A DNA stretch of 64,000 nucleotides from Microcystaceae cyanobacterium (GTDB lineage Bacteria > Cyanobacteriota > Cyanobacteriia > Cyanobacteriales > Microcystaceae). Shown in pieces: positions 1-35,355 of this stretch. Each line of letters begins with the position of its first letter. Position 1 is the first letter of the stretch. The stretch spans positions 3,315-67,314 of the forward strand of contig JBGTNM010000180.1 in assembly GCA_041743025.1 (NCBI GenBank), in the 5' to 3' direction. The notes under the pieces are model-generated. The model had not been told where the DNA came from, made no database searches, and saw only the letters and a list, made by a program, of their open reading frames with translations. A program made the position numbers and the translations under genes.

Positions 1-250
1 TACGAACGGAAACACTTTTAAGAAAATCTAAAGCTAGTGAACCATCTGTACTGCCGCCATCAGCAATAATGACATCGATTATTTGGGAAATTGTTTGCAT
101 ATTTATTAATTGGTTTCTAATTTTCTCACCTTCATTAATAACAAAAATACAAACACAAAAAAGGCTTTTTTTAGGCGATAACTCTTTCAGGCTGTAATCC
201 GGTATTTGCCAAGATTTAGAAAGGTGCAATAAAGGGTCAGAACTCATCAT
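1..250 (-). CDS. Glycosyltransferase family 2, N-terminal part (gene runs off the left edge)
   Basis: Own translation of the minus strand from the ATG at 250 gives MMSSDPLLHLSKSWQIPDYSLKELSPKKSLFCVCIFVINEGEKIRNQLINMQTISQIIDVIIADGGSTDGS... and stays open to position 1. This is a GT-A style N-terminus (FVINEGE, DGGSTDGS). It is absent from the ORF track because it is truncated. Confidence 0.6.
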   Translation of the reverse strand, partial: MMSSDPLLHLSKSWQIPDYSLKELSPKKSLFCVCIFVINEGEKIRNQLINMQTISQIIDVIIADGGSTDGSLALDFLKSVSVR

Positions 251-258
251 TTTTTTGA

Positions 259-1257
259 CTAAAGTTTAATGTCTTTTGAATCATGAACAATATTATGCCG
301 ATCTTGCTCAGTGATTAAAACAGAGCTATTTTTTTCATCAGAAATATAATAGTTTTCCCAGCCTCTTGATTTAACAAACATTAAACCCACATATTCACAC
401 AAAATTGCTAAAATAATTGATATAAAAAAAAACATGATAGCATTTTGCATGGATAATGTTACCCAGCCTTCAGCAACTTTTTTTTTGACAAGATAAACCA
501 ACACAATATAAATCATATATAATAAATTAAATAAACTTGCCAATAGACTTAGGTAGCTCGCTAATCGGAGTGGATGAACAGAGTTCATAAAAATAATCTG
601 TAACCCTAAATTAAAAGAAGCTATCAAACTTCTTGATTTAACTCTTTTATATCTTTTAATAGGCTTATAAACAAAAGTTTTACTTTTGTATCCAACATAA
701 GCACTTAGGAGACGCAAGTAACAATTTTTATCTTGAGCTTGAGTAATCGCATTAGAAACTTGACGACTAATTACACAAAAATAGGTGGCATTTTTCGTTA
801 AGGGAATTTTAAACACTGTTTGACAGCATCCATAAAATAGATTAGTTCCTATTCTTGTCCAGAAGGGTTCTCCTGAACGATTTGGCAGTACACCCATTAA
901 AATATCTTGTCCTGCTCTGCACTCTTGGATTAAGCTAGGAATTAACTGGGGTGGATCGCAAGAACCTAACATGATGATTATAAAATCTCCAATCGCCGAA
1001 TCGAGTCCAGAAGAAATAGCAACTTCTGTACCAAAATGTCGAGAAAGATTAATAAGTCTAATGCCTGCGTATTTTTTTAACAGGGAAGTGACTTGTTGTG
1101 CTGTGTTGTCTTCTGAGCCATCATTGATGAGAATCAATTCATAAAAAATATAATTAGTTTTTAAGATTTCAATAATCTCGCTCACAAACGCTTCGATAAT
1201 TTGAGCATCGTTATAAAGTGGAACTATAACAGAGATAAAACAATCAAAGCTAACCAT
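259..1257 (-). CDS. Glycosyltransferase family 2, polyprenyl-phosphate glycosyltransferase type (ArnC/GtrB/DPM1-like) with C-terminal TM helices
   Basis: 332 aa. GT-A N-terminus (ISVIVPLYNDAQ, LINDGSEDNT). Two hydrophobic C-terminal helices (LRLASYLSLLASLFNLLYMIYIVLVYL, AIMFFFISIILAILCEYVGLMF). The stop overlaps the start of the upstream gene (1257). Confidence 0.8.
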   Translation of the reverse strand: MVSFDCFISVIVPLYNDAQIIEAFVSEIIEILKTNYIFYELILINDGSEDNTAQQVTSLLKKYAGIRLINLSRHFGTEVAISSGLDSAIGDFIIIMLGSCDPPQLIPSLIQECRAGQDILMGVLPNRSGEPFWTRIGTNLFYGCCQTVFKIPLTKNATYFCVISRQVSNAITQAQDKNCYLRLLSAYVGYKSKTFVYKPIKRYKRVKSRSLIASFNLGLQIIFMNSVHPLRLASYLSLLASLFNLLYMIYIVLVYLVKKKVAEGWVTLSMQNAIMFFFISIILAILCEYVGLMFVKSRGWENYYISDEKNSSVLITEQDRHNIVHDSKDIKL

Positions 1258-2393
1258 TAAGCGATCATATCCTCATTTTGCAAAAATTGCAGTTCGGCAG
1301 GAATATCATAAACGTTATCAATTTTTCCACCCAAAACACTGATTAAATTAGGTAGACTTGGGTTTCTGTTAAAAAGGATAGGTCGGCTGTCATCTACTTC
1401 ACTTTGAGGTAAAGTAGTTTTGATTACCCAAAGAGAATTAATATACACACAATCTTGAAGAATCGATAAATACCGGGTTCCATCTCGAATCATATAAGGA
1501 TAATTTGTCTGAGGCTTGTACTGATGATAGATTTGCTCAGTCGAACTGACACAGGAAGCAGTATCCTGCCAATAATAAGTAGGAGTATAGCGTACATGAC
1601 TGAGCGTGTGAAGGTGTTGAGACGGAAAAGGCATCAGTGAAAAAAAAGGCCCGCACATGACGGTAATTCCCAAATTTTTTAAAAGAGGAGGAACGTCAAC
1701 CAGTGCCATTTCTGCAAATTCGTGCTTTAGAGGAATAATCGGCAAATCAGAAGCTGACAATATTCTATTGAGAGATGAGTAAGTACAATTAAAAATATAT
1801 TTTGTTTTAAGCGAAGAAAGTCCTATTTTAGAATTTAAGATTATTTCTATCTCTTGAGAATCAGCACGATAATCTAAGTGAGTCGCTTCGGTCTGTAGTT
1901 TAACTTCGATCGCGGCACTTTCTAGTTCTTCATAAATCCTGTTTTTAAGTTTCAGCGCGTCAAAAACATATTCTTTTGTATAAAAAACTTCTTCAATTAA
2001 ATGACTATTAAAAAGGTTTTTAATTGAGGGTTGGGCGGGAGTAAGAGGAATGGCAATCAATTTACAAAAATTTTTAAATTGAGAAAGATTAATTTTGGAA
2101 AATTTTTTACCAATTGCGTAATAGTTAGTAAAATCACTAAAAATACACTCTCGATACTCATTAACAAACTTAGGAAAATTAATTTTAGAACGCCATGCTG
2201 TTAAAATACTGCGAGGATAGTGATAGCCATGATGTACTCTAGCTTGGTTAGCATAAGAAGCGCGTTGTAACAGATCTGCTTCTTTTTCCAAAATGATAAT
2301 ATTTTTTAAATACTTTTTTAAATATATCGCAACTTTACACCCAAAAAAGCCGCCCCCTATAATAATAGCATCATATTTTTTAGACTGATTCAT
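1257..2393 (-). CDS. FAD-dependent oxidoreductase
   Basis: 378 aa. N-terminal dinucleotide-binding fold YDAIIIGGGFFGCKVAIYLKK...IILEKE. In an operon with the PKS genes and GT2. Confidence 0.65.
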   Translation of the reverse strand: MNQSKKYDAIIIGGGFFGCKVAIYLKKYLKNIIILEKEADLLQRASYANQARVHHGYHYPRSILTAWRSKINFPKFVNEYRECIFSDFTNYYAIGKKFSKINLSQFKNFCKLIAIPLTPAQPSIKNLFNSHLIEEVFYTKEYVFDALKLKNRIYEELESAAIEVKLQTEATHLDYRADSQEIEIILNSKIGLSSLKTKYIFNCTYSSLNRILSASDLPIIPLKHEFAEMALVDVPPLLKNLGITVMCGPFFSLMPFPSQHLHTLSHVRYTPTYYWQDTASCVSSTEQIYHQYKPQTNYPYMIRDGTRYLSILQDCVYINSLWVIKTTLPQSEVDDSRPILFNRNPSLPNLISVLGGKIDNVYDIPAELQFLQNEDMIA

Positions 2394-2425
2394 ATTAACC
2401 TCAAAAGATCAATTAATAAAATTTT

Positions 2426-5400
2426 TCAAACCAGCCCAATCAGCTTTTCTAATGTTAAGTGAATTTGCGCCTCTGTATGATCACAAGTGATGAAAAAACG
2501 TAATCGAGCAGCATCATAAGGAACAGAAGGATAAACCATTGGCTGAACATTAATTCCTTGCTCAAAAAGCGCATTACACAACTCAACGGCTCGCCGAGGT
2601 TCACCGACAATAATCGGGATGATAGATGCCCCTTGGCTGACTCCTGTATTGAGTCCTAAATTTTGGGCTAACGTTAGAAACAGTTTAGCGCGATCACGTA
2701 AACGTTTAACCCGTTGAGGTTCAGCTTGGATCTGTTGAAGGGCAGCTAAAGCAGCAGCCGTGTTTGCCGGAGAAATTCCGACACTAAAAACAAAACCAGG
2801 AGCCGTATATTTTAAATACTCAACCAAAGTCTCAGACGCGGCAATGTAACCGCCACAACTTGCCAAAGATTTACTGAGTGTTCCCATCCACAAATCGACA
2901 TCGGTAGGAGCCGCCCCGAAATGTTCTCCAATGCCTCGGCCAGAATCGCCTAAAACACCGATTGAATGCGCTTCATCCACCATTAAAAAGGTTTTATATC
3001 GTTTTTTGAGGTCAATCAAGCGAGGTAAAGGTGCGATATCTCCTTCAGCACTGTAGATTCCTTCAACAGCGATTAGCACTTTCTCATAGTTAAGACGATG
3101 CTGTTGTAAAAGTTGTTCTAAAGTTTGCCAATCATTGTGAGGAAATTCAATCATTTTGGCACGTGAGAGTAAACAGCCCTGGCGAATGCTATTGTGACTC
3201 AGAGCATCGTAAACAATGAGATCGTTTTTGCCAAACAAATGCCCAATTGTAGTTACATTGGTCGTATGCCCACCAATATAGACAATACAATCTTCTGTCC
3301 CTAAAAAATTGGCAATCGCTCGTTCTAGCTCTCGATGTAAAGGAATTTCGCCCGATAGCACCCGACTGGCTGAAACAGAAGTCCCATAACTGGCGATCGC
3401 CGCCTGAGCCGCTTGGCACACCACAGCACTCCCTGATAGCCCTAAATAATTGTAACTGGCATAATTGATCAATTCCTGACCACCAATTCTAATCAGATGG
3501 TTAGCAACCCCCGTGTAAGGCATAAAAAAGGGATTGCCAATTTGTCCGGCGGTTTCTAAATCCTGTTTTAAGGCCAAATACTCACTAGAAAGATTGAATT
3601 GATAAAAATGTCTGGGAATTTCGGACAAATCCTCTAAAAAAGTCAGAATCTCCAGCTTTCCGTTCCTTTCTTCTCCTACTCTCTTCGTCCAGTCTTCTTC
3701 AATGAAATTGATCGGCAAAACCGGTTCACTGATGGCTGGCGATAGTGGCATTTCTTCTGCTGTCTTGCCCAAAATCTCCTGCAACAGATAGTCTGTTAGT
3801 AAGGCGATCGTCGAATAATCAAACGCCACATTCGCCGTTAAAGAAATTCCTAAATCGGCTTGTAAATTATTTTTAAACTCGACTGCCATCAGGGAATCCA
3901 GCCCATAATCAGCAAAATCCTGCTGAGAATCGATACTTTCAGCCGAATTGAACCCTAAAACCCTGGCAATTTGCGCTTGCAAATATTCCCCTAACTGACT
4001 TTTTTGCGCTTGGGGAGAAAGAGAGGCTAAAGTTTGCAGAACTTTAGGTTGCTGTCTTGGGAAGAGGTTTGGCTCAATCTCCGTTTCTTGAGCGATTGGC
4101 TTAAGTAACCCAAAAAAAGGCGATTTATGGGGAAATTTAGCTAAAAACTGCTCCCAATTGACTAGCAACACCCCAATCTGTGTTACGTCTTGCGCTAATA
4201 GCTGTTCTAAAATCTTTAATCCTTCATCGGGGGGAAGGGGCATAATGCCTTGAGCCTTCCATTGTTCCTCTAACGCGCTTGCCATACCGGTTTCAGCCCA
4301 AGGGCCCCAATTAATACTCAATCCTGGCAAGCCTAAACAACGGCGATAGTGCATCAAGGTATCCATAAAGCTATTAGCCGCTCCATAATTCCCCTGCCCA
4401 AAAGAACCTAAGCAAGCTACCATCGATGAAAAACACACAAAAAAGTCTAAAGAACAATCTTGAGTTGCCGCGTGCAGGTTCCAGGTCCCAGCCACTTTAG
4501 GCTGCATGACAGCGTCAAAGCGTTGCCACGACTGTTTGAGGAGAATTCCATCATCGAGAACACCAGCCGCATGAATAATTCCTCTTAACGGTGGTTCAGT
4601 CTTTTTGCGCCGTTGGGAGGCTAACAAGCGATTGACTGCCGAGGGATTAGCTACATCCGTTTTGACTGTTCTAACCTGCGTACCTGCTTGTTCTAATCGA
4701 TTAATGACGGCTGCCGCTTGGGATGAAGGCTCACTCCGCCCAGTGAGAATCAGGTGCTTTGCCCCTTGTTGAGTCATCCATTGAGCGACTTGTAGCCCTA
4801 ATGCTCCCCATCCCCCAGTGATTAAATAAGTAGCATCCGAGCGAATCGACACAGAGGGTGAGGGGAGAGAAATGACGACTTTACCAATATGTTTTGCTCC
4901 TGCCATATAGCGGAAAGCTGACACCGACTCCTCAATCGGAAACACCGTAGCGGGCAAGGGTTTTAAACGCCCTTGGGTAAATGCCTGCATGAGTTGTGTT
5001 AGCATCGCCGTGATTAAACCGGGCTGTTGCTGAGCGAGATCGAGTAAATCGAAGATAAAGTAAGTAATATCAGCGCGTTTTTGCCTTACTTGCTCAGTGT
5101 CCCAAACGCCAATTTTTCCAATTTCCACAAATCGACCGCCAGCCGCTAGAAGTTCCAAACTTTTAGCCATAAAATCGCCATTGAGGCTATTGAGAACGAC
5201 ATCAACTCCTTGCCCTTCAGTCTGCGCTAAAATCTCGTGAGCAAAAGCCAGCGTCCGCGAGTTAAAAATATGCTCAATCCCCTGTGATTTCAGAGTGTCC
5301 CATTTAGGAGGACTAGCTGTTGCAAAAACTTCTGCCCCCACTTGTTGCGCTAACTGTACAGCCGCTTGTCCTACCCCACCGGCGGCGGCATGAATTAAAA

Positions 5401-8400
5401 CGCGATCGCCGGCTTTGATTTTAGCCAGATAATGTAAGCCATAGTAAGCCGTCAAAAAAGTGCTAGGAATGGTGGCTGCTTCCGTAAAACTCAGGAATTT
5501 AGGTTTAGGAACCACAAAAGATGCTTTGACTCGAACATAACTGGCTAAACTTCCCAGGGCAAACGCCGCAACCACTTCATCCCCCACTTGTAAATCTGTC
5601 ACCGCTTCGCCTCGCGCGACAATGGTGCCAGCACATTCTCCCCCAAACGGAATCGCTGTGGCATCTGTCAATCCCATCTGCTCTAAATAGGCTTGCAGCA
5701 TCCCCAGCGCATTGAGGACATCGCGAAAATTCACCCCAGCCGCTTGCACTTGAATTTCGACTTCATCGGCAGCAGGGGAGCAGCGCAATAAAGGAACGAG
5801 CTTCAGGCGATCTAGGCTGCCATATTGGTCAATTTTTAGTTGAATTAGCTGATTTAGTGGGGATGCGGCTTGTGCCGGTAACAATCGAGGGACATAACGG
5901 TTTCCTTGGCGGTAGGCGATTTGATCTTCTCCATCAGGAGAGCGTACCTCCGCCAGTAAAATTTGCTCATCTTCTAAGGCGAGTTCAGCCTCGAAATCAA
6001 GACAAGTACAAGCTAAATCGGGATGTTCTAGGGTAATAACTTGTCTTAGCCCCCAAAGACTTCCTTGTTGAGGCGCGATCACGAAGTGGCGCTGCGCGAT
6101 CACGCTTTTTTGATGATCTGTAATCGCTTGAGTCGCTCTTGTCACTAGCCATAAATGAGGACACTTCTGAGGAGGCAACTGAGAGAGAGCTTGAATTAAA
6201 TAGATGACACTACCACAGCCCAACCGTTGCGCGGCTTGTAAATTGGCGAAATTGATGGATTTTTCAGGCGTTGCTCCCCAAAGATGAATAATACCATCAC
6301 AAATAAACAAGTTTTCTTGAAGATCTTGGAATAATTGCTCAAAATCTGCTGGTTGCGTGGGATTGAGTTGGTAACCCGCCGCCAATTTTTCATAGGATTG
6401 AGCCGGAAAAACCAATAGAGTGCGATCACCTTGTTTCCTCAAGCTTTCGGCTAACTTTACGCCTAAACCAGCTTTATCAGCAAAAATCAACCAATGGGAT
6501 AATTTAACCGTTGCTGCCGTCTTTCTCTTGCTCGGTTGCCAAACGACTTGATAAAATAAGTTAGCCTGACTTGATTCTGCGGCTTGAGAAAGAGATGAAT
6601 TGGCAATCGTCGGTGTTTTTTTGAGATCCGTCAGAAGGCTGCTCGCTTCTGAGGCTGGGGAAAGGAATTGACGTGCGATCGCTCGTAGCGTAAAGCCTTG
6701 AATCTCCCCAATCAACTGCCCTTGCTCATCCCAAAACTGAAAATTAGCCTTGAGGGTATTGCCGCGAGATTGAAGAGAGCCATAACTCCACAAACTACCA
6801 GAAAAAGACTCAATTAAAGTGAAACGATCTATCCCAATCGGCAAAAAAGTCTGATCTGTCCTTTCATCGGCTAAAATAGCCCCCAAAACCTGCCAAGCAG
6901 CATCTAGCAACGCGGGATGAATCTGATAGGCTTCTGGCACTAACGACGCTGGCAACTGAATCCAGCCTAATGCTTGCCCAACACCCCGCCAGAGTTTTTG
7001 AATGCCTTGAAAAGCCGCACCATAGACAAGTCCTTGCTTTTGACATTGCTGATAGTGTTCACTGACTGATAGCGGTTGAGTGCATTGCTGTTGTGCTTGG
7101 AGCAAACTCATTAAATTACGAAAACTAGGCTGGCCAAGCCGAATTTTTCCTTGAACATGGCTAATTTTGTGGGTTGGATTGCTGATTTGAAACTGATAGC
7201 GATCAGCAGATTCGGCAGTGAGGGTGATTTGGAGGGGAGATGTGGTTCCCAAGGGCAAAAACAGGGGGCGATCAATTTGGATAGTTTCTAACCCAATGGC
7301 TGACTGAGGAAAAAGCTGTTTTCCTGCTGCCAGAGCCATTTCTAGATAGGCTGAGGCAGGAAAAAGGGGGGTGTCATCCCAGCAATGATCTTGCAGGTAA
7401 GCGGGGGAAGTCGCACTAATTTGAGTTTGAAAACAGATGCCCTCACCACTATTTGAAGCTAATCGTTGCCCCAATAAAGGATGAGCAAGCAAGTTAACGT
7501 CAGTTGAAGTTTGAAGGAGATTGTAACCTTCCCACCAATAGCGTTGACGCTGAAAAGGGTAAGTCGGTAAATGCAGAAAACGGCGGGGATAATAGGGTAA
7601 ATTTGAGGTTCCGCCCGTTTCAAAACTCGCCCAATCAATTGACACACCCGCCAGATAAAGTTCTCCCAGACTGTGCAGTAATTGTTGCCAGTCAGAACAA
7701 CCTGAGCGTAAACTAGGCAACCATAGCGGCGTTGGCAAGAGAGCATCTGATGCCCAGATAGCTTGCCCCATGCCTAAAAGAACGGGTTGGGCTCCAATTT
7801 CGAGCAAAACATCACAGCCATATTTTTGTAAAGTCTCGACGCTATCAGCAAACCTGACAGTATGACGTAGGTGCAGACACCAGTATTCAGGCGTTGCCAT
7901 CTCGTCAGCGATCGCTTCTCCAGTGAGATTGGCAATTAAAGTTAGGCGCGGTGGATGGTAGGTAATTTCTGAAGCAATTCGCCTAAATTCGGCTAATATT
8001 GGCTGCAATAGGGGAGAATGGAAGGCATGAGAAACGGGTAGAGGAATCGTTTTAACCCCTTGCGCGTTCAATTGAGTGGTGACAGAGGCGATCGCTATTT
8101 TCTCCCCCGATAATACCCAACTTTGCGGGCCGTTGTGCGCCGCAATCGAGAGCGTGTCGGGGAAAGAGGCGATCGCCTGCCGAACAGTAGCGGCATCGGT
8201 TAAAACCGCCACCATCGCCCCCTCAGCCGGGAGTGATTGTATCAATTTGCCGCGTTGGGCGACTAATCGCAAAGCGTCTTCTAAGCTAAACACACCTGCC
8301 AGACAAGCGGCGACATACTCCCCTAAACTATGACCCATTACCACTACTGGAACAATCCCCCAAGCCATCCACAACTGTGCTAGAGCATATTCAAGAGCAA

Positions 8401-10231: not shown

Positions 10232-10375
10232 AAGTGCCTGTGCAAAATAAATGACTATTTTTTAGCTAAATCGCGGGAAGCCTCGCGCTCTAATCTTTGA
10301 GTCAGCATCGGGAGTTGTTACAGAGAACAGGCCTTGTATTAACTTTTATCATCAGTAATTTAGCTTTAAAATAGT

Positions 10376-16300: not shown

Positions 16301-18586
16301 GGGATCGATTAATTCGGCTTCTTTGGCACTATAACCCCAAAAAGCGGCATCAAAGTTCTCGATATCGCCGATCATCGGACTCGCCTTCACATAATGGGGA
16401 TTTTTGACGAGATCGGCATCGACTCCAGCCGCAAGGATCTCCCTCTCACTCAAAAAAGTGATGGATTCCACCCCATCGCAGAGATTTTGCCAAAATTCCG
16501 CTAAGTTATTAGCACCAGGAAACCGACAAGCCATCCCAATAACCGCTACTTCTCGTTGTTCTGTTATGGGTTTGCGTCGCGGGGCGACCTGTGGAGTTGA
16601 GGCGAAAAACTGGGTGAGGGCAGCTATACTTGGGTAACGAAATAAGTCTGCGATCGCAACCTGAAATCCCCATTCTTCTGTTAAGCAGTGTTGGACTTGA
16701 CCTAACAGTAAAGAATTTCCACCTAATTCAAAGAAATTATCCTGAAAATTAACAATTTCTTGCCCTAAAACGGTTTGCCAAATCTGAGCAATTTTCGCCT
16801 CAATCTCTGCGGGACTTTCTAGCTGACGAGACGGCAAAAGACGGTTTAACTGCGCTAAAATAAGCTCAAATTCCCCAGCATCCCAACTTTTAATCAATAA
16901 AGCGTATTGAATTTTGCCGATACTAGTTTTAGGAATCGCCGTTTTGGCTAAAGGAATCAAGTAATCAGGACTGATACCGACTTGGCTGAGCACTTGCTCT
17001 CTGATCGTTTTGAGTAAAGCTAAGCGTTCTTGTTGATCTGATAACTCGCTGTTGAAGAAGATAGCGAGTTGTTCGGCTGTTCTATCGTTTGAGCGTACCC
17101 CACAGGCGGCACTATAAGAAACAGAGACTCCTTCAATTTGTTCGACGACCGCTTCAATTTCATGGCTGTAGTAATTCACGCCATTGATGATGATCATCTC
17201 CTTAGCTCGACCTGTCAGTACCAGATGACCTTGCTGTAAAAAGCCCAGATCGCCTGTTTGAAACCAGCCATCGGCTAAAAAAGCCTCTTGAGTCGCCGAT
17301 GGCTGTCGGTAATAGCCATTGGCGACGGCTTCTCCTTGAACCTGTAAATAACCAATCCGTCCTTCCGGCAAAACTTGATGGTTCTCGTTAACAATACGAA
17401 GGGTAATTCCTGGAATGGGAACGCCTAAACTAGTAAACAGCGATTTATGGGGAATTTTGTTTTCTATTGCTTCTAAATGGGGCGGTAATGCTGAATGAAC
17501 GCTCAAAGCAGTATCTGGAGGAGAGTAAGTTATACCTGAGCCTAATTCTGCCATGCCAAAGGCCGATCGCAGTGCCGTCGCCTTGAGTCCATAGGGCATC
17601 AGTTTGGCCAGACAATCCTGCATCACCGGAAACGCCACTATTTCGCCAGCACACAGGAGAAACTCAACACAGGATAAATCCCAGGATTGTCTCAGATTTT
17701 GCGCTAATGGCTCGTTAATGAGCGCGTAGGCAAACGTCGGGGCCCAACTGTGGGTGACGCGGTATTGAGCGATTAAATCTAGCCAATTGAGGACACGTTT
17801 TAAAATAAACTCTTTCTGCACATAAATCGCACTACAGCCCAACAAAACACAGCGAATATGCCAATCGGCAAGACTACCAATGTGATCGAAAGGCAACCAA
17901 CTCAGAATCACATCCTCTGGTTGATGGCGGTTCAGTACATTCGCTCCTCTCGCACGCGCTAGGACACTGCGATGGGTGAGTTGAATGCACTTAGGAGTTC
18001 CCGTACTACCAGAAGACAGGGCAAAAAAGGCCAAGTCTTGCCGATGAGGTTGATGATAAATGCGAGCGGGTGGATGATGGCGGCAATTTTCAAAAATAGC
18101 GAATTGAGCAGAAATACCAGATTGAAGCAGATAATTGCTTAAATCTTGACGATTTTGAGCGATAATTAACCAAGGATTTGCTAAAAATTTCCACAAATGC
18201 TTAAGTTTTTCGAGGGAAGGATTAATCCCGTCCATGGCAGGAGGTGTTTCTAAAATGATGGGAACAAACCCTCCTAAAATACATCCCCAAAAAGCAGTGA
18301 GTAGAGCGCACTGCTCGTCTAAAAGTAAAATAACCTTATCTTGTGGTTGTAAACCTAGCTGTCGAAGTCCTGCTAAAACTGATGCCGCTTGCTCAAGGAG
18401 TTCGCTGTATGATTGCGTGATAATGTTCTGGTGGCGATCGCAGTAAATCAATTTTTTGGCTGTCATCTGTCGAGCCGCTTGTTGCAGAATTTCTGGCAAC
18501 GTCATCACTCCATCAGGGGTAGCGGGTAGACAGCCTCCATTACTAACAGCAAGAGGTTCCCACTCAGACGAACAAGCTTTAGTCAT
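10376..18586 (-). CDS. Loading/extension megasynthase: fatty acyl-AMP ligase (FAAL)-carrier-KS-AT(degenerate)-DH-ER-KR-ACP
   Basis: 2736 aa. N-terminal adenylate-forming domain (ALSSGSTGTPKCIQLTH, GWFQTGDLG, GRAKEMIIINGVNY). Carrier (FFELGGNSLL). KS (QTACSTSAAAIHLA, EAHGTATPLGD, KTNVGHLQIASG). AT remnant (GDSVGE instead of GHSxGE, ~70 aa missing including HAFH). DH (HPLLGKRL). ER (LIHAAAGGVGLAAVQLA). KR (YLITGGFGDIG). ACP (GIDSLGAIEL). Confidence 0.95.
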   Translation of the reverse strand: MTKACSSEWEPLAVSNGGCLPATPDGVMTLPEILQQAARQMTAKKLIYCDRHQNIITQSYSELLEQAASVLAGLRQLGLQPQDKVILLLDEQCALLTAFWGCILGGFVPIILETPPAMDGINPSLEKLKHLWKFLANPWLIIAQNRQDLSNYLLQSGISAQFAIFENCRHHPPARIYHQPHRQDLAFFALSSGSTGTPKCIQLTHRSVLARARGANVLNRHQPEDVILSWLPFDHIGSLADWHIRCVLLGCSAIYVQKEFILKRVLNWLDLIAQYRVTHSWAPTFAYALINEPLAQNLRQSWDLSCVEFLLCAGEIVAFPVMQDCLAKLMPYGLKATALRSAFGMAELGSGITYSPPDTALSVHSALPPHLEAIENKIPHKSLFTSLGVPIPGITLRIVNENHQVLPEGRIGYLQVQGEAVANGYYRQPSATQEAFLADGWFQTGDLGFLQQGHLVLTGRAKEMIIINGVNYYSHEIEAVVEQIEGVSVSYSAACGVRSNDRTAEQLAIFFNSELSDQQERLALLKTIREQVLSQVGISPDYLIPLAKTAIPKTSIGKIQYALLIKSWDAGEFELILAQLNRLLPSRQLESPAEIEAKIAQIWQTVLGQEIVNFQDNFFELGGNSLLLGQVQHCLTEEWGFQVAIADLFRYPSIAALTQFFASTPQVAPRRKPITEQREVAVIGMACRFPGANNLAEFWQNLCDGVESITFLSEREILAAGVDADLVKNPHYVKASPMIGDIENFDAAFWGYSAKEAELIDPQQRLMLECAWESLEDAGYNPFTYGGAIGLYAGAAMNTYVLNNLYPNRDRLDANDSLSVISLDSLGGFQMMVSNDKDYLTTRVSYKLNLTGPSINVQTACSTSAAAIHLACQSLLNGECEMAIAGGVSVKVPQTIGHLYQEGMILSPDGHCRAFDAQAQGTIFGSGVGLVVLKPLEAALKDGDRIYAVVKGSALNNDGGSKVSYFAPNGEGQARAVSDALFAAQVNAQSIGYVEAHGTATPLGDPIEIAGLTQAFRLDTSQIGYCAIGSVKTNVGHLQIASGVAGFIKTVLALYHQQLPASMHFEQPNPQIDFAHSPFYVNTHRQDWPSGVSPRRAGVNSLGIGGTNVHLILEEAPVTSPLDPNPLLSDRPRHLLTFSAKTEKALKALIGRYQTFFSTHQELNLADVAFTANSGRTALPYRCAIVAQAITQVQTNLETVSTTDGFYRLSRDRRPKIAFLFSGQGLQNLAIGSELYQTQPIFRKTLDACAEILHPYLDRSLIEILYPQAHNGNSKSLLASYTQPAFFAISYALFQLWKSWGIEPNAVMGDSVGEIVAACVAGVFSLEDALKLVVYQGRSRSSAARSQPILVKKWPNHHTVGFESIIAQITYNSPQLNLIASRTGDWATEAIATSDYWGEQMEYYGKADEGLKTLRQAGYEIFLDCSPQAAILTLGKSLITDENLLLLPSLSPNTSDWLVLLTSLKELYLSGVDVDWLGFDREYNRHRVSLPTYPFQRQRYWIDPPVTSPQPMSGHPLLGKRLVCPLKTVIFESLLTKNKQDWLREHQVNQVPVLAAAVYVEMALAAGIKVLKSSEIALQGVSFQQALPLSDSSTVQVIVTKDTQGATFEIYSTADPVSDRWTLHSAGQLLLNPSPASSNPLNLEQKQARLCEKMTAEAFYQQCQERGLTYGVSFKSLVQLWRQGGEALGEIRLAPDLVRELPAYYFHPRLLDACWQVVLATLPPGTYLPIAFERLILYRPVQSGLWSYAKLRSTAPSDTLTADLQIWDEQGQLVAQIEGLTSKCVSVPDSSTITEQDWLYEVEWRQKAQGATSTPNPHQWLILADQGGIGESLAALMQSNQQQCKLVFRENDLNFKQLLAELESDRFKGVIYLWSLDLTDALEKAITQVQLGDENARLDGSDLSNVLEKAIAQSCQPLLRLFQALTGQPRQLWLITKGTQAIANSYPSLSGITQSPLWGMKKAIEQEHPELSCVCLDLATHRTQEAAQILASEICHPDGETQIGWRGQQRYVARLVRSSVQLYQPCRLVTTAQKTLESLTWQPTPRRQPSDDEVEIEVRATGLNFRDVLNGLGMSVGDEQELGLECAGEVVAVGAGVEGLQVGDRVMGLAIGSFSQYVTIPAAWMITLPDTLSFEASATIPGAFLTAYYTLVHLAQLKPGDRVLIHAAAGGVGLAAVQLAQQIGAEVFATASASKWEFLQALGVKKVMNSRSLTFADEIAQMTPGIDVVLNCLSGEFMAKSLSVLRPHGCFLEIGKQGIWTAEQVAQVRPDIDYFCCDLLTVAQTKPDLIQSMLQTLMVQIRAGTLQPIPYQVFTHAKVKDAFRTLQQAKHIGKIVVSGRSNTLCRAEGSYLITGGFGDIGLRLAEWLAEKGAKHLILVGRNAPTLSSRHILQQLTAKGVNLLTLKADVTCFAEVAELFEQRSRSQFPPLRGIIHAAGVLADGRLRQQSWEQFEQVMAPKVQGAWNLHWLTQQEPLDFFVSFSSVASLLGSAGQVNYCAANAFLDSLAHARQGMAMPALSINWGAWGQIGMAAKSPALRQSISGMETIEPSQALMILEQLIASSVSQIGVVPINWTEYRSLTSPFLADLINNIARNPSEVHPAVTLPHWETVAPSLRKDYLIAHVLSQVAAVLGLNTFDALDPNQGFSELGIDSLGAIELSNRLQTSLNNSLPSTLTFDYPTVSQLANYLAEKLFAVGREETPSELVSVSEREAVQQLTEAEAEALLLYELENLQL

Positions 18587-18727
18587 CGCTCAATTTAGCT
18601 ATTGGACATTTTTCTTGAATCTTAGCTAAAAACAAAGCAATAAGCAAGAGAAAACCAGGCTATTGAGAAGTGCGAAGTTACTTCATCGAACTAACGCTTA
18701 AATTTGCACGACTACTTATTCGTTATT
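18587..18727. promoter_or_regulatory. Divergent intergenic/promoter region between the PKS operon (minus) and the KS-SRPBCC-SDR operon (plus)
   Basis: A short non-coding gap between two divergently oriented gene sets. No specific -10/-35 element was assigned. Confidence 0.4.
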
Positions 18728-21109
18728 ATGCAAGCAGACGCAGATCAGTTCCCAGAACTATCCCCAACCAAAAGGGCTTTGTTGGCCCTTAAGCAACTAC
18801 AAGAAAAGCTGGAAGCTTTAGAAAAGTCCAAAAATGAACCGATCGCGATCGTGGGTTTAGGTTGTCGCTTTCCAGGCGGCGCAGACGATCCAGAAGCTTT
18901 TTGGGATCTGCTGGAAAACGGCAGAGATAGCATTAGCGAAGTTCCCCCCGAACACTGGGATTTAGAAACTTACTATGACCGCGATCCCAACGCTCCTGGA
19001 AAAATGACAACTCGTCACGGCGGCTTTATTCCTCACCTACAAGCCTTTGATGCCCAATTTTTTCGTATTGCGCCGCGAGAAGCCATGAGCTTAGATCCGC
19101 AGCAACGGTTACTGTTAGAAGTCACTTGGGAAGCCTTAGAAAATGCTGGGATTGCCCCAGAGCGACTTAACGGCAGTCCCACCGGGGTCTTTATCGGCAT
19201 TTGTGGCAATGATTATTGGCATCATTTAGGGTCTGGGCCTTGGGAAATTGATGCTTATCTAACGACAGGGAACACTCATAGTCTAGCATCGGGGCGCATT
19301 TCCTATACGTTAGGCTTAACCGGCCCGAGTCTTTCTGTCAATACCGCCTGTTCTTCCTCTTTAGTGGCGATACATTTAGCAATCACTAGCCTTCGCAATC
19401 AAGAGTGCGATTTAGCTCTAGTAGGTGGTGTTAATCGCATTCTTATGCCTGAAATAAGTATTAATTTTTCAAAAGCTCGAATGCTGTCCCCTGATGGACG
19501 GTGCAAACCCTTCGATGCGACGGCTAATGGTTTTGTTCGCTCAGAAGGCTGTGGTATGGTTGTGATCAAACGGCTGCGGGATGCGATCACAGCAGGCGAT
19601 CGCATTTTAGCCTTACTTTATGGCTCAGCTATTAACCAAGATGGACGCACCAGTGGCTTAACGGTTCCTAATGGCTTATCTCAACAAGCCGTCATTAAAC
19701 AAGCCTTAACAAATAGTCAGATTGAGCCACACCAAGTTAGTTACCTAGAAACTCATGGTACCGGCACAGAGCTAGGCGATCCGCTTGAAATTGGGGCATT
19801 AGGGGCCGTTTTTGGGACTGAACGTTCGGCTGAGCAGCCTTTAATTTTGGGGGCACTCAAGGCGAATATCGGTCATTGTGAGGCGGCTGCTGGCATTGCT
19901 AGCCTGATTAAGGTGGTACTGTCTCTACAACATGAAATGATTCCTCCCCAGATTCATTTTCACTCACCCAATCCCCACATTGATTGGGCGCATTTGCCAT
20001 TGAATATTCCTACCCAACTCTTACCTTGGCCGAAGGGAACTCAACGCAGGATAGCTGGCGTGAGTTCTTTTGGTTTTAGTGGGACTAATGCCCATGTCGT
20101 CGTTGCCGAAGCGCCGCCCATCGTTGCTATACGAGAACAGACAACAGAGCGCCCGATCCATCTACTGACGCTCTCAGCGAAAAATGAAGCGGCTCTTAAG
20201 GCACTAGTGGCTCGACACAGTACCTGGTTAACAACCCATTCCCAGACCGCTATAGCAGATGTGTGCTTTAGTGCTAATATGGGGCGCTCCCACTTTAATC
20301 ACCGTCTGGCGATCGTGACGGCTTCTATTGCTCAATTACAGCAGCAGCTAGCCACCTGGTTGACAGGACAGCCAACCGAAGGCGTTTTTCAAGGACAGGT
20401 TCAATGCCGTTCCGCTAGGCAAGTTGCTTTTGAGTTTACGGCGGGTGCCCGTCAAGCAGAGAATTTTGTTGATCAGCTTTACCAAACTCAGCCGACTTTT
20501 CAAAGAGCGATCAAGCACTGTCACAGCATTATTGCCGATTTTTTAGATATTGCGTTAAGCGAATTGCTCTGGCAAGCCCCGCCATCTTCGCCTCAATACT
20601 CGGATATTAGCTTATTTATTTTAGAATATGCTTTATTTATTCTCTGGCAATCTTGGGGGATCGTCCCGGCAGCAGTTATCGGAGAGGATATTGGAGAATG
20701 GGTTGCCGCAACAGTTGCCGGAGCTTTTCCTTTAGAAGATAGTCTAAGATGGTTAGCACAACAGCAGAGCTTCAAGGAGGCAGCTAAAGCAATAGCCATT
20801 GGTCAGTTGCAGTTTCCTGTTTTTAGCAAATTTGCTGGAGAAATAAGAGAATTTCCTCAATTTCGGCAACAATTTAAACAGCCACCCACTTTACCGATGA
20901 CAACGCTCCCCTTCAAAAGTTATAACACAGTAGTTACGATTGACGGCTCCGCATCTACCCACTGGTCAACCCTAATTTCCACGCTAGCTCAACTTTATCT
21001 ACAAGGCGTAGAGGTTAACTGGTCAGGCTTTGAGCAAGGCTACTTCCGCCAAAAAGTTGTCTTGCCAACCTATCCATTTCAGCGAACTCGCTATTGGATT
21101 GACGGCTAA
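18728..21109 (+). CDS. Stand-alone ketosynthase with a dead acyltransferase-like domain (KS-AT0), no carrier domain
   Basis: The track ORF starts at TTG 18704; ATG at 18728 gives MQADADQFPELSPTKRALLALKQLQEKLE (a typical inter-module linker). KS catalytic triad is intact (NTACSSSLVAIHLA, ETHGTGTELGD, ANIGHCEAAAG). AT signature motifs are destroyed: FEFTAGARQ for FxFxGQGxQ, and GEDIGE (20681-20698) for GHSxGE. The HAFH region is absent. Ends with YPFQRTRYW. Confidence 0.85.
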   Translation: MQADADQFPELSPTKRALLALKQLQEKLEALEKSKNEPIAIVGLGCRFPGGADDPEAFWDLLENGRDSISEVPPEHWDLETYYDRDPNAPGKMTTRHGGFIPHLQAFDAQFFRIAPREAMSLDPQQRLLLEVTWEALENAGIAPERLNGSPTGVFIGICGNDYWHHLGSGPWEIDAYLTTGNTHSLASGRISYTLGLTGPSLSVNTACSSSLVAIHLAITSLRNQECDLALVGGVNRILMPEISINFSKARMLSPDGRCKPFDATANGFVRSEGCGMVVIKRLRDAITAGDRILALLYGSAINQDGRTSGLTVPNGLSQQAVIKQALTNSQIEPHQVSYLETHGTGTELGDPLEIGALGAVFGTERSAEQPLILGALKANIGHCEAAAGIASLIKVVLSLQHEMIPPQIHFHSPNPHIDWAHLPLNIPTQLLPWPKGTQRRIAGVSSFGFSGTNAHVVVAEAPPIVAIREQTTERPIHLLTLSAKNEAALKALVARHSTWLTTHSQTAIADVCFSANMGRSHFNHRLAIVTASIAQLQQQLATWLTGQPTEGVFQGQVQCRSARQVAFEFTAGARQAENFVDQLYQTQPTFQRAIKHCHSIIADFLDIALSELLWQAPPSSPQYSDISLFILEYALFILWQSWGIVPAAVIGEDIGEWVAATVAGAFPLEDSLRWLAQQQSFKEAAKAIAIGQLQFPVFSKFAGEIREFPQFRQQFKQPPTLPMTTLPFKSYNTVVTIDGSASTHWSTLISTLAQLYLQGVEVNWSGFEQGYFRQKVVLPTYPFQRTRYWIDG

Positions 21110-21159
21110 TACAGTTCACTTTCTGTTAATATACGCAGCAATTTACCTAAAAATAGCTT

Positions 21160-21789
21160 ATGTATCAAACACTCAAAAAATCTAAAAAATTAGTGGCTTG
21201 GCTGTTGGGATTGACGCTGACAACAACCGCAATTGTTGAATTTTCTGTTGTGGCAAACGGTGCAGATAAGCAGCCGTTTTCTGTCTTACAACAAACCAAA
21301 CAAAAAGAAGGAGAAATTGTTCTTAAGGGAAGTAATGGTCAATATACGGGCCATGTAGTTGTTAGAGGAACACAAAGGGCTGCTTGGTCTGTTTTAACTG
21401 ATTATGATAACTTTGAACGCTATATGCCGAATGTGATTGAAAGTAAACTTCTGCAAAGCAGTGGCAATCGCAAGGTATTTGAACAAGTTCAACTTTTTCA
21501 GCTTGTATTGGTTTCTAGAAGGGCGAGAGTGAAAATTGTTGTGACAGAAAATCCTCCAAATAGCCTTAAGTTTAAGGTAGTAGAAGGAGAAGTAAAAGCC
21601 TTAGAAGGAGGTTGGCAAATTAAACCGCTTGCTGCTAATCTTTTTTTGATTTCTCATCAAGTTTCTGTTGAACCCGATATTAAATCTAGCATTAACCGCA
21701 GATTGTTTTACTCCGTCTATGAAGATACCCTAGAAAATACCTTCGCAGCGATTAGACAAGAAATTGCTCAACGTTCTAAGGTAAATTAA
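21160..21789 (+). CDS. SRPBCC/START-fold (cyclase/dehydrase family) protein with N-terminal signal/anchor
   Basis: 209 aa. Hydrophobic N-terminus (LVAWLLGLTLTTTAIVEF). RAAWSVLTDYDNFERYMPNV is typical of the polyketide cyclase/dehydrase-lipid transport fold. Confidence 0.65.
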   Translation: MYQTLKKSKKLVAWLLGLTLTTTAIVEFSVVANGADKQPFSVLQQTKQKEGEIVLKGSNGQYTGHVVVRGTQRAAWSVLTDYDNFERYMPNVIESKLLQSSGNRKVFEQVQLFQLVLVSRRARVKIVVTENPPNSLKFKVVEGEVKALEGGWQIKPLAANLFLISHQVSVEPDIKSSINRRLFYSVYEDTLENTFAAIRQEIAQRSKVN

Positions 21790-21802
21790 ACTGCAAAAAA
21801 TA

Positions 21803-22615
21803 ATGAGTTTTCAGCAGCAAACTGCGATTATTACAGGGGGATCGAGTGGGATTGGTAAAGCTATCGCTAAAATTTTAGTTTCACAAGGGTTTCAACTTGC
21901 CATTATTGCTCGTGATCACGCTAAGTTAATCCTGACACAAGAGAAACTAAAAGCGATTAAAAAATACCCTGAACAAAAAATTTTAATTTATGTGGCTGAT
22001 GTCAGTGATCGCCGCCAAGCCGAACAAGCTATTACCTCTGCTATTACCGATCTCGGAACCCCCGATTTGTTAATAACTTCGGCAGGTATCGTCTATTCCG
22101 ATTATTTTGAACACCTGCCTATTGAAGTTTTTGAGGAGACAATGGCTGTTAATTATTTTGGCACGTTATATTGTCTTAAAGCTGTGTTTAACAGGATGAA
22201 ACAAGAGCAAAAAGGGCATATTGTTCTAGTGTCTTCAGGCGCAGGTTTAATGGGAATTTATGGCTACAGTGCCTACAGTCCTAGTAAATTTGCTATCCGA
22301 GGATTAGCTGAGTCATTGCGCCCAGAATTAAAATTATGGGGAATTAATTTATCCGTTGTCTATCCGCCGGATACTGATACGCCTCAGTTAGAACAAGAAA
22401 ATAAAACTAAACCTCCAGAAACTAAAGCCATAACAGGTAAGGCAAAAACCTGGAGTGCTGAAGCAGTAGCCCAAGCAATTATTCAGGGAATTCAACAAAA
22501 ATCTTTTGTTATCACTCCTGGATTAGAAATGAGTTTATTAGCCAAGTTGCACAGTTTATTTGCCACACAAATTCATCAATATTTTGATCGAACTATTGCT
22601 AAAGTGCGAAATTAA
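21803..22615 (+). CDS. Short-chain dehydrogenase, 3-ketodihydrosphingosine reductase (KDSR/Tsc10/FVT1)-like
   Basis: 270 aa. [12 protein letters not shown] cofactor motif. Catalytic S...YSPSK. The stretch [15 protein letters not shown]...[24 protein letters not shown] closely matches, from memory, the KDSR signature ([15 protein letters not shown]...[22 protein letters not shown]). Confidence 0.8.
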   Translation: [270 protein letters not shown]

Positions 22616-23480
22616 TAAAATTTAAAAGTCCTTGAGAATATTGTGCTTTTCCTACTCGACTAAGATCGTGATGTTTACCGCCTTCAATAATTAATAATAC
22701 TTTTGGTTCTGGAGCTACCTGAAATAGTTCTTCACTCATTGTAACAGGAATGATTTGATCGCTAGTGCCATGAATTAAGAGGATCGGTACTTGCAGCGAT
22801 CGCACCTTACTCAGAGAATCAAAATGCTGTGTTAAAATCCAACGTTTGGGAAAAATTTGATAGGGAAATAACTCGTCAACCATCGCAGCCATTGAGGTAA
22901 AAGAACTTTCCACTATCACCCCCGCCATGTTAGGGTATCGGGAGGCTAACTCAATCGCGATCGCACCCCCCAAAGAATGCCCATAGACAAAAATCTGCTC
23001 AGGTGCAATATGACGTTGTTGTGTTAAATATCGCCAAGCAGCTTTACCATCTTCATAAACGCTAATTTCGCTAGGAAAAGCCCCTAAACTACGTCCATAA
23101 CCTCGATAATCGAGCAATAGCACCGACAGTCCCAACTGATGAAATAAGACAGCTTGGTGCAAGAGATCCCCCAAATTACTGCCATTGCCATGCAAATAAA
23201 GCACGACAGGTGCGTTGGGTTGCTCAGCCGCAATCCACCAACTGTATAATTCTTCAGATGCGACTGAAATCAGGACTTCCTGATAGGCTAAATTGGCAGC
23301 TATCGGAGTGACACTCACCACCGAAGAAGGAAAAAAGATGAGTCGGGTTTGCCACAGTCTGAGACATACGCCTAATCCCACATAAGCAACAAGCATCAAG
23401 CTGGCAACTAAATGTAACGTTTTCGCTTTGCCAGCCAAAAAACCTGAGAACAAGAACTGAAGCAGGAATTTATGCGACAT
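22599..23480 (-). CDS. Alpha/beta hydrolase (membrane-anchored serine hydrolase)
   Basis: 293 aa. N-terminal TM. HGNGSN oxyanion region, nucleophile elbow GHSLGGAIA, distal IHGTSDQ and KHHD. Confidence 0.8.
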   Translation of the reverse strand: MSHKFLLQFLFSGFLAGKAKTLHLVASLMLVAYVGLGVCLRLWQTRLIFFPSSVVSVTPIAANLAYQEVLISVASEELYSWWIAAEQPNAPVVLYLHGNGSNLGDLLHQAVLFHQLGLSVLLLDYRGYGRSLGAFPSEISVYEDGKAAWRYLTQQRHIAPEQIFVYGHSLGGAIAIELASRYPNMAGVIVESSFTSMAAMVDELFPYQIFPKRWILTQHFDSLSKVRSLQVPILLIHGTSDQIIPVTMSEELFQVAPEPKVLLIIEGGKHHDLSRVGKAQYSQGLLNFINFAL

Positions 23481-26923: not shown

Positions 26924-26925
26924 GA

Positions 26926-35159: not shown

Positions 35160-35355
35160 TTTTATCTTTGATGTCGGCTTGAAGACTCTCGGTTTTACCG
35201 ATGAGATGAAAAGCCGACCAGCAAAAAACCGTGAAGCACTCCTGAAGATTAACTCAAGGCTTAGAACTAAAATTGTCAATAAATGTGACAAAAATAATCT
35301 ATAAAGTCAAGTTGTATATAAAATAAAAAATAGGTCGAATGTGAAAGATAAATTA

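Follow-up and report, generated by a model that had tools for sequence, protein, structure and literature searches.

Bacterial sphingolipid synthesis is known from two convergent routes, one in Bacteroidetes and the other in Caulobacter and Sphingomonas, and in the Caulobacter pathway reduction comes after N-acylation and is performed by an unrelated reductase. Bacteroides thetaiotaomicron has no full Tsc10/FVT1 homologue, the candidates being 16–30% identical (PMC9278070), and the sphingolipid pathway has been described as never before studied in cyanobacteria (PMC8895605). Sphinganine analogues in fungi follow a logic that combines a polyketide synthase (PKS), an alpha-oxoamine synthase (AONS; Fum8) and an enzyme of the short-chain dehydrogenase/reductase type (SDR; Fum13) (PMC7376913). 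Here we describe a 64,000-nt stretch of DNA (the window) from a Microcystaceae cyanobacterium (GenBank assembly GCA_041743025.1, contig JBGTNM010000180.1, positions 3,315 to 67,314 of the forward strand), in which a PKS assembly line that begins with a fatty acyl-AMP ligase (FAAL) and ends in an AONS domain lies beside an SDR of the 3-ketodihydrosphingosine reductase (KDSR) family. Judging from the gene content, it is somewhat probable that this locus makes a long-chain 2-amino-3-hydroxy (sphingoid-type) base. Literature searches returned no description of FAAL/PKS-AONS-KDSR clusters and no characterised cluster of this kind, and term checks gave no mention of such clusters in FAAL reviews, a review of cyanobacterial fatty-acid natural products, a survey of halogenase biosynthetic gene clusters (BGCs), a preprint on Microcystis BGCs and papers on bacterial sphingolipids. 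The locus and its relatives appear to represent an undescribed, widespread bacterial route to sphingosine-like lipids.

In the pathway that we propose, the steps up to the terminal AONS can be read from the sequence, and those after it are inferred. The FAAL would prime its own carrier domain with a fatty acid, and fully reducing KS-(AT)-DH-ER-KR-ACP modules, of which only that of the second megasynthase (PKS2) has an intact acyltransferase (AT), would add saturated C2 units from malonyl-CoA until the chain finishes on an acyl carrier protein (ACP) domain fused to a catalytically complete, pyridoxal phosphate (PLP)-dependent AONS. A decarboxylative Claisen condensation with an amino acid substituted at C-alpha (Ser/Ala type) would release the chain as a 2-amino-3-ketone, and the KDSR-family SDR would reduce its C3 ketone to the alcohol. 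A predicted exported SRPBCC protein may carry the hydrophobic base, while an OlsC/LpxO-like dioxygenase may hydroxylate the carbon alpha to a carbonyl, which could be C4 in the 3-keto base or, if an acyl chain is attached, C2 of that chain. Two GT2 proteins that resemble polyprenyl-phosphate sugar synthases, perhaps together with a flavoenzyme of the DAO fold, could make lipid-linked sugar donors, and an ArnT-like GT-C enzyme could transfer the sugars at the outer membrane face. The hydroxylation, the glycosylation and the envelope destination are proposed with less confidence than the base itself.

The assembly line and its terminal AONS domain

The gene map was built from the listing of open reading frames (ORFs) together with Pfam and NCBIfam scans of the window proteins. 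An earlier sequence-only reading of this DNA had named two megasynthases, an SDR, an SRPBCC protein and GT2 genes, all of which were found where it had placed them. PKS2 (2426..10231, minus strand, 2601 aa) has the order KS (4-376), malonyl-type AT (543-863), DH (917-1188), ER (1488-1787), KR (1800-1980), ACP (2082-2149) and Aminotran_1_2 (2253-2596) in Pfam, just as that reading had described it, including the GTLSKSL motif of the terminal domain. Its motifs comprise DTACSS/HGTGT/NIGHL in the KS, GHSLG and HAFH in the AT, HAAAGGVG in the ER, and LDD and YGAAN in the KR.

The terminal domain itself (2444..3475, minus strand; Aminotran_1_2, 2.2e-48) conserves the equivalents of His159, Asp231, His234, Thr262, Lys265 and Arg390 of the Sphingomonas paucimobilis serine palmitoyltransferase (SpSPT), and is a member of the alpha-oxoamine synthase (class II aminotransferase) superfamily with a complete catalytic residue set. 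References for comparison were E. coli BioF, E. coli Kbl and SpSPT, each validated against the PDB (850–944 bits), supplemented with SmSPT, ThAOS and SPTLC2 drawn from PDB alignments; cyanobacterial BioF was absent from this set. The domain is only 29–37% identical to any characterised reference among BioF, Kbl, SPT and SPTLC2, a range that does not fix its substrate (29% to E. coli BioF, 34% to Kbl, 35% to SmSPT, 29% to SpSPT and 36% to SPTLC2), and it scores 92 bits to fungal SphA versus 239 bits to the best bacterial SPT. It is 58–69% identical to every sampled AONS that is linked to a FAAL, an ACP or a PKS, the sampling having covered cyanobacteria, Pirellulales, Acidobacteria and Desulfobacterota. 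When one genome per species was scanned with a sequence pattern, at least 599 AONS relatives were confirmed among the matches listed. In a neighbour-joining tree, drawn without support values and without cyanobacterial BioF, the domain groups in a tight clade of its own, and the reference nearest to it is human SPTLC2. None of the curated SPT models of NCBIfam is passed, the scores being 319.8 for CFB (cutoff 640), 285.3 for BetaP (cutoff 500) and 221.2 for AlphaP (cutoff 670), and the earlier label of a PKS-fused Spt is therefore overstated. By these scores and identities the AONS clade is an unnamed one, neither BioF nor curated SPT.

The closest NCBIfam model is nonetheless bioF (TIGR00858, 357.5 bits), and relatives of the domain carry the older annotation 8-amino-7-oxononanoate synthase. 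These two observations, together with a fold search in which the model of the SDR returns generic SDRs only, favour a terminal domain that is a BioF/Kbl-type cofactor or small-molecule enzyme and an SDR that is a generic ketoreductase. We regard this explanation as very improbable, since the score lies under the bioF cutoff of 426.45, the identities to BioF and Kbl are low, the domain is covalently fused behind a PKS ACP, and the SDR is far closer to human KDSR than to other SDRs (at most 30% identity). Further, the domain shares the YNY, DEAHS and SKS motifs with SPTs, whereas BioF and Kbl have DDAHG and GKG. A BioF identity was rejected on the cutoff, the 29% identity to the E. coli enzyme and the ACP fusion; a grouping with BioF was among the results that the sequence-only reading had named as refuting it.

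As to the amino acid, the position of ALAS residue 83 tunes amino-acid choice (PMC7376913). Its equivalent, position 102, is Ser across the whole clade and is also Ser in SPT and BioF, while Kbl and ThAOS have Val. This argues for a substrate of the serine or alanine type rather than glycine, and Ser at this position cannot separate the two.

Upstream in the assembly line, PKS1 (10376..18586, minus strand, 2736 aa) consists of a FAAL, a carrier, KS, a degenerate AT, DH, ER, KR, ACP and a C-terminal docking helix. The Pfam matches are AMP-binding (35-426), PP-binding, KS (678-1066), an AT fragment (1219-1341), DH (1515-1788), ER (2051-2337), KR (2349-2527) and ACP (2625-2690). Models for long-chain fatty-acid ligases and for fatty acyl-AMP ligases give the best scores with its N-terminal 620 aa. 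The FAAL and the DH-ER-KR loop described earlier for this protein are borne out. The carrier motif is GGNSL, the DH, ER and KR motifs are kept, and the docking helix reads LTEAEAEALLLYELENLQL. PKS2, on the other hand, begins straight at its KS with no N-terminal docking helix, as does every PKS-AONS orthologue examined. Of the parts of a FAAL-primed modular type I PKS, the FAAL, the carrier, all three KS triads, the DH, ER and KR motifs and the AT of PKS2 are present, but the ATs of PKS1 and of a third PKS protein described below are degenerate. A chance origin of the ORFs can be dismissed because the frames span 2600–2700 codons with ordered domains.

A third PKS gene had been overlooked. Located at 18704..21109 on the plus strand, where it heads the divergent operon, it encodes an 801-aa protein with an N-terminal docking helix (LSPTKRALLALKQLQEKLEALE) of the type that pairs with the C-terminus of PKS1-type proteins, an intact KS (Pfam, 2e-99), a dead, truncated AT (a partial Pfam match) and the post-AT linker, right after which it stops without an ACP. 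A 64% identical homologue follows the FAAL-PKS co-directionally in a related locus, L014, which ends within that gene. The 801-aa protein is thus best read as a conserved third component carrying the docking partner of PKS1. The product had been described as a fatty acid extended by two saturated C2 units; this count is not secure, because the AT of PKS1 is degenerate and a third KS gene carries the PKS1 docking partner.

Since neither the PKS1 AT nor that of the third KS protein appears to work, and the latter lacks an ACP, this copy of the pathway may be impaired. It could be decaying or rewired, with the PKS1 AT lost and the 801-aa gene the stump of a lost third module, and would then give little, no or shorter product. 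The AT of PKS1 (14087..14932, minus strand, aligned with the orthologues in L045 and L014) indeed has GDSVG instead of GHSxG and is shorter by about 70 aa, the HAFH region being part of the deletion, whereas the two orthologues keep a full-length AT with GHSLGEYVA. The AT of the 801-aa protein is cut down to GEDIG with a still larger deletion, and the divergent orientation of its gene differs from that in L014. However, the frames of 2736, 2601 and 801 codons run without frameshifts or stops, the Cys-His-His triad is intact in all three KS domains, the DH, ER, KR, ACP and AONS motifs and the docking helices are retained, and an independent sequencing run gave an identical contig. AT-less modules served in trans are also common in PKS systems. 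Decay or rewiring of this copy is therefore, in our judgement, quite unlikely.

The KDSR-family reductase and its link to the AONS clade

The SDR that would act on the AONS product (21803..22615, plus strand; adh_short, 2.8e-48) is 41% identical to human KDSR over 242 aa (BLASTP, 189 bits; NP_002026.1/KDSR_HUMAN, a reference verified by exact match). Its best PDB sequence match is Cryptococcus Tsc10 (7.4e-28), in an alignment that spans the C-terminal EN.TKP..TK loop, while non-KDSR SDRs in the PDB score at most 94 bits and other SDRs in the related loci are 24–30% identical. The cofactor motif TGGSSGIG and the catalytic YSPSK are present, as is the string that the sequence-only reading had quoted from the catalytic half, and the signature YS.SKFA.RGLAE...YPPDTDTP...EN.TKP.ET is shared with the human enzyme. 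A hydropathy scan found no transmembrane-like segment, and the N-terminus opens at the Rossmann motif, unlike the membrane-anchored human enzyme. The PDB matches of an AlphaFold model (pLDDT 73) were generic SDRs only, with Tsc10 not in the top 50. Taken together, the sequence comparisons identify the protein as a genuine KDSR/Tsc10 relative and agree with the previous description of it as KDSR-like rather than FabG-type. The family is widespread in cyanobacteria (59–70% identity), where it is often annotated 3-dehydrosphinganine reductase by JGI.

The SDR gene is preceded by that of an SRPBCC/START-fold lipid-binding protein (21160..21789, plus strand; Polyketide_cyc, 1.9e-13), whose N-terminus, MYQTLKKSKKLVAWLLGLTLTTTAIVEFSVVANG, is basic and then hydrophobic, in keeping with the signal or anchor attributed to it before. 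An SRPBCC gene also lies 2.4 kb from an ACP-AONS gene in L044. The SDRs that adjoin AONS and those that adjoin SRPBCC form one orthologous family with the same signature.

Independent support for a shared pathway comes from other genomes. Members of the SDR family adjoin AONS genes of the same clade in no fewer than 11 further cyanobacterial loci, which belong to several orders and differ in architecture (L003, L091 and L092 together with the eight that follow). Within an AONS-centred sample of 80 loci, taken from contigs of one genome per species, eight (L033, L041, L054, L060, L062, L063, L074 and L076) have a same-strand KDSR-family SDR of 56–63% identity to that of the window at 0–1.3 kb downstream. 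The chance of finding a single-copy gene in a 20-kb window is about 0.4% per locus, which gives a binomial tail of about 1.5e-9 for loci that are not fully independent. Viewed from the SDR, an AONS is present in five of nine contexts (the window, Nostoc C117, Calothrix HK-06, Scytonema tolypothrichoides and Microcystis), the SRPBCC partner in four (the window, Chroococcus, Leptolyngbya ohadii and L089) and neither in one. The arrangements include FAAL-desaturase-ACP-TE-ACP-AONS-SDR in Nostoc C117, ACP-AONS-SDR followed by an MGDG-synthase-like glycosyltransferase in Calothrix HK-06, a FAAL-PKS of 2904 aa with AONS and SDR in Microcystis, and a compact operon of FAAL, PKS-AONS and SDR between housekeeping genes in a Thermosynechococcaceae metagenome-assembled genome (L062). 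Because the same SDR family adjoins the same AONS clade in so many other loci, a pathway from 2-amino-3-ketone to 2-amino-3-ol is supported, and the functional link between SDR and AONS can be called well supported on gene neighbourhood. For that link the physical adjacency of SDR and PKS in the window is not essential, and it may be secondary.

Two of these SDR-AONS loci have features of their own. A single 1081-aa ORF in L054 (8249-11494) unites FAAL, carrier and AONS, after which come a CHRD-domain protein and, next, the KDSR-family SDR, and Scytonema tolypothrichoides has a Rieske oxygenase between AONS and SDR.

Tailoring genes, related clusters and locus borders

Recurrence of the neighbouring genes was counted by clustering all ORFs of the related AONS loci. 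A FAAL recurs next to the AONS in 39 loci, a GT4 in nine and a PagL-like outer-membrane deacylase in three. The OlsC/LpxO-family Fe/2-oxoglutarate lipid acyl 2-hydroxylase predicted at 26905..27702 (plus strand; Asp_Arg_Hydrox, 2.4e-56) scores 262 bits with the NCBIfam OlsC model and 136 bits with LpxO, both below cutoff, and homologues of 51–63% identity occur within 10 kb of the AONS in nine of the 80 loci. Known relatives of this type hydroxylate the carbon alpha to a lipid carbonyl. The carbon alpha to the ketone in a 3-keto base is C4, so that this step could, speculatively, give a phytosphingosine-like base.

Upstream of it on the same strand lies a polytopic, ArnT-like GT-C glycosyltransferase (25283..26923; PMT_2, 1.9e-11; nine hydrophobic segments), homologues of which adjoin PKS-AONS in four loci (L012, L014, L019 and L045). 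Two alpha/beta hydrolases are probable cluster members. The first (22599..23480, minus strand; Hydrolase_4, Abhydrolase_1) is a predicted membrane-anchored protein of 293 aa with a transmembrane-like segment at 20-43, and its homologues are found near the AONS in two loci (L019 and L046) and near the SDR in L089. The second (23601..25250, plus strand; DUF1400, 4.9e-36) has a signal-like N-terminus and a homologue adjoining PKS-AONS in one locus, L014 (44%), as well as one in the synteny of L089.

On the far side of PKS2, the gene of an FAD oxidoreductase of the DAO fold (1257..2393, minus strand; Pfam DAO) starts 33 nt past PKS2 and has a stop-start overlap with the following GT2 gene. The DAO family is widespread (50–67% identity). 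The AlphaFold model of the protein (pLDDT 83) has glycine, sarcosine and glycerophosphate oxidases as its best Foldseek matches (TM 0.65–0.73, 12–16% identity); fold comparisons of the SDR and DAO models do not refine function. The GT2 (259..1257, minus strand; Glycos_transf_2) looks like a polyprenyl-phosphate sugar synthase of the PgfS/ArnC type (PgfS 1.4e-45, ArnC 4.7e-22, both below cutoff) and has C-terminal hydrophobic helices, with segments at aa 234-297 in a hydropathy scan. A second GT2-like gene, of which the 5' part is present and the rest cut off by the window start (1..250, minus strand), resembles AglJ/dolichyl-phosphate hexose transferase. Its product is 69% identical to a 266-aa ORF adjoining the GT2 in Chlorogloea (L011), and this ORF and its counterpart in Synechococcus PCC 7336 give weak matches to the AglJ, dolichyl-phosphate hexose transferase and ArnC models. 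Since both GT2s look like polyprenyl-phosphate sugar synthases and the locus has a GT-C, the role of direct lipid glycosyltransferases first considered for the GT2s has been downgraded and periplasmic glycosylation via a lipid-linked sugar would fit better. The whole DAO-GT2-GT2 cassette adjoins PKS-AONS in Chlorogloea (63–69% identity). The co-occurrence of ArnC-, ArnT-, LpxO- and PagL-like families suggests that the product is a lipid of the envelope and not a toxin that diffuses away.

The base composition of the locus changes abruptly. The three PKS genes (2426-21109) have a GC content of 46.7–47.6%, while the flanks have 30–39% (GT2/DAO 32–34%, SRPBCC/SDR 38%, PMT_2 30% and the OlsC-like gene 34%), and this sharp block suggests that the PKS trio was acquired horizontally and inserted among native lipid-tailoring genes. 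One could go further and regard the trio as a secondary-metabolite island whose alpha-aminoketone is a toxin or alkaloid precursor (a sphinganine-analogue inhibitor, for example, or a cyclised or dimerised amine), with the SRPBCC-SDR pair and the envelope-type genes as unrelated native housekeeping neighbours. Consistent with such an island, the SRPBCC-SDR pair is syntenic without any PKS in L002, L004 and L089, with or without the hydrolases and the GT-C, and L089 reproduces the right-hand order of SRPBCC, SDR, hydrolase, DUF1400 hydrolase and PMT_2. The GC step, the lack of a nearby SDR at the closest homologues of PKS1 and PKS2, those of Chroococcus, and the PKS-independent DAO-GT2 cassette of Synechococcus PCC 7336 point the same way. 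The SDR family nevertheless adjoins the AONS clade in several cyanobacterial orders, and Chroococcus FPU101 does possess a PKS-AONS as well as an SRPBCC-SDR pair, on separate contigs. Moreover, each of the tailoring genes (GT-C, OlsC-like, hydrolase and DAO/GT2) is found again beside PKS-AONS in other genomes, which argues that their co-location has been selected and is not accidental. We therefore consider an unrelated island fairly unlikely.

Several observations weigh against the proposed sphingoid-type base. Besides the possible impairment of this copy, the AONS fails the curated SPT and bioF models, and its distance from every characterised reference leaves the substrate loosely constrained. 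The two most similar clusters with this architecture, those of Chroococcus FPU101 and Chlorogloea, have no SDR within 10 kb, and the adjacency of SDR and PKS in the window could be an insertion accident, given the 47% GC of the trio against 30–39% in its neighbours. The SRPBCC-SDR pair, though conserved, is also found in PKS-free, housekeeping contexts (Chroococcus, L. ohadii and L089), and the DAO-GT2-GT2 cassette exists without any PKS in Synechococcus PCC 7336, so it may be a sugar-donor module of general use. Between 1 and 30 kb no ORF matches a GNAT, TLC or other N-acyltransferase family, so that no ceramide synthase is evident, and a FeeM-like gene occurs only in the Calothrix cluster; for want of an evident ceramide synthase the claim is kept to a sphingoid-type base rather than a sphingolipid. 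Finally, Belton et al. looked at Nostoc punctiforme and did not find long-chain bases there, but the gene studied was a different, stand-alone BioF-like one (PMC8895605). As far as sequence analysis reaches, the core of the sequence-only reading stands and survives the refuting results that it had named, whereas its count of C2 units, its role for the GT2s, its Spt label and its cluster range do not.

That range was too small. Genes up to about 27.7 kb are recurrently linked to the same AONS family elsewhere, and the cluster therefore probably reaches that far. The next gene, a 2OG-Fe(II) oxygenase (27746..28459, minus strand; 2OG-FeII_Oxy_3, 1.9e-08), has no homologue in the related loci, and its membership, suggested by adjacency alone, is uncertain. 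A promoter and terminator scan of 18.3–28.8 kb gave counts not above those of shuffled controls. The right border is marked by a TIR/ThsB-like gene and a REP-associated transposase. The TIR-domain protein (28739-30169, plus strand) matches PADLOC ThsB at its N-terminus (8e-57) and a PD-T4-6-like region at its C-terminus (1e-48), and would be a defence-type gene directly past the lipid cluster. The REP-associated tyrosine transposase (30143-30919, minus), an IS605 OrfB/TnpB (35341-36576, plus), a phage-type integrase (41709-42881, plus) and a D5-N/DUF5906 primase-like protein (43236-45881, minus), together with a stretch of 25% GC at 38–40 kb, look like an integrated element. A few kilobases past the cluster there are also a Rieske [2Fe-2S] protein (32189-33259, minus) and a two-HKD phospholipase D/cardiolipin-synthase-like protein (36612-37883, minus). 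Four large ORFs of 529, 658, 752 and 527 aa at 50850-56665 (minus) and 56719-58302 (plus) have no Pfam or PADLOC match, and the region 50850-58302 has a strongly negative GC skew.

The related loci show further, lineage-specific arrangements. Directly 3' of the PKS-AONS gene, an isocitrate/isopropylmalate-dehydrogenase-family gene occurs in L016, L019, L029, L053 and L064, and an HMGL/isopropylmalate-synthase-like gene is found in L012 and L019; both are absent from the window and may supply an unusual keto or amino acid. Oscillatoriales loci (L035, L038, L043, L047, L049 and L052, including Arthrospira PCC 7345 and Lyngbya PCC 8106) have a stand-alone ACP before the AONS, a B12-binding radical SAM/DUF4070 protein after it, and OlsC-like hydroxylases upstream that are sometimes duplicated. 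Pleurocapsales-type loci (L022, L028, L034, L037, L042, L044, L048, L050, L051, L055, L056 and L082) carry genes of group-2-like sigma-70 factors on one or both sides of the ACP-AONS gene, an unusual and conserved arrangement. Non-cyanobacterial clade members of 55–60% identity (L065-L072 and L078-L088; Pirellulales, Acidobacteria, Desulfobacterota and Thiomargarita) almost always have a FAAL about 2.2 kb upstream of the AONS, and no KDSR-family SDR was found within 10 kb of them.

Relation to described sphingoid pathways

The locus and its relatives provide a concrete gene set, with an assembly-line acyl chain, an AONS clade 58–69% conserved across phyla and companions of the lipid A-remodelling type, and its SDR is far closer to the human enzyme (41%) than the functional Bacteroides reductase is. 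If the reading is right, a new lipid class would exist in cyanobacterial envelopes, including those of the bloom formers Microcystis and Trichodesmium, which would offer biomarkers for environmental lipidomics and a programmable PKS route to designer sphingoid bases. A broader view, which we put forward tentatively and hold to be possible rather than probable, is that of an unrecognised third bacterial route to sphingoid bases in many cyanobacteria, with its FAAL-AONS part also in Planctomycetota, Acidobacteriota and Desulfobacterota. A dedicated AONS clade would always be fed carrier-bound acyl chains by a FAAL/PKS, a true orthologue of eukaryotic KDSR would perform the reduction in cyanobacteria, and hydroxylation and glycosylation of the lipid A/ornithine-lipid type would lead to an envelope glycolipid. 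Such a route would overthrow the belief that sphingolipid biosynthesis is essentially missing from cyanobacteria, and would prompt the question of what relationship exists between bacterial and eukaryotic KDSR.

Among described systems, RedL (undecylprodigiosin) and SxtA (saxitoxin) likewise release a carrier-bound acyl chain by a C-terminal AONS of a PKS-like megasynthase; they differ in that their chains, which are short or beta-keto ones, become precursors of pyrroles or guanidine alkaloids, with no full reducing loop and no KDSR partner. The ceramide pathway of Caulobacter and the 'Rhodobacteria' (AasR, AcpR, Spt, bCerS and CerR) has in common with our locus a dedicated adenylating enzyme that loads a dedicated carrier feeding an AONS (PMC9386255), although its components are separate proteins without PKS extension, where the cyanobacterial ones are fused, include a reducing PKS extension and are accompanied by a eukaryote-type KDSR. 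In Bacteroides, too, a bacterial AONS is followed by an SDR (BT_0972) that reduces the 3-ketone, but the Bacteroides SPT stands alone and uses acyl-CoA, and it is the cyanobacterial SDR that reaches 41% identity to human KDSR. The eukaryotic pathway of SPT and KDSR/Tsc10 is matched in the identity and signature of the SDR and, for the AONS, in its catalytic residues together with the motifs YNY, DEAHS and SKS. It differs in using palmitoyl-CoA where the locus would use a PKS-bound ACP thioester as acyl donor; here, moreover, the AONS is a megasynthase domain in a clade of its own, the SDR has no predicted membrane anchors and no ceramide synthase is evident.

The fungal clusters (FUM1, FUM8 and FUM13 of fumonisin, and those of the sphingofungin and myriocin types) share the overall chemistry: a highly reducing PKS makes a saturated chain, an AONS and an amino acid convert it to a 2-amino-3-ketone, a KDSR-like SDR reduces C3 and hydroxylations follow (PMC7376913). 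Here, by comparison, the host is bacterial, priming would be by a FAAL, the PKS is modular and not iterative, and an AONS follows the ACP as a fusion in cis; tailoring would rely on OlsC/LpxO-like, ArnT-like GT-C and polyprenyl-phosphate GT2 proteins in place of fungal P450s and tricarballylic esterification. What sets the locus apart from these known systems is an AONS joined in cis to a modular PKS that is FAAL-primed and fully reducing, a dedicated AONS clade, a eukaryote-type KDSR and a tailoring set in the style of lipid A.

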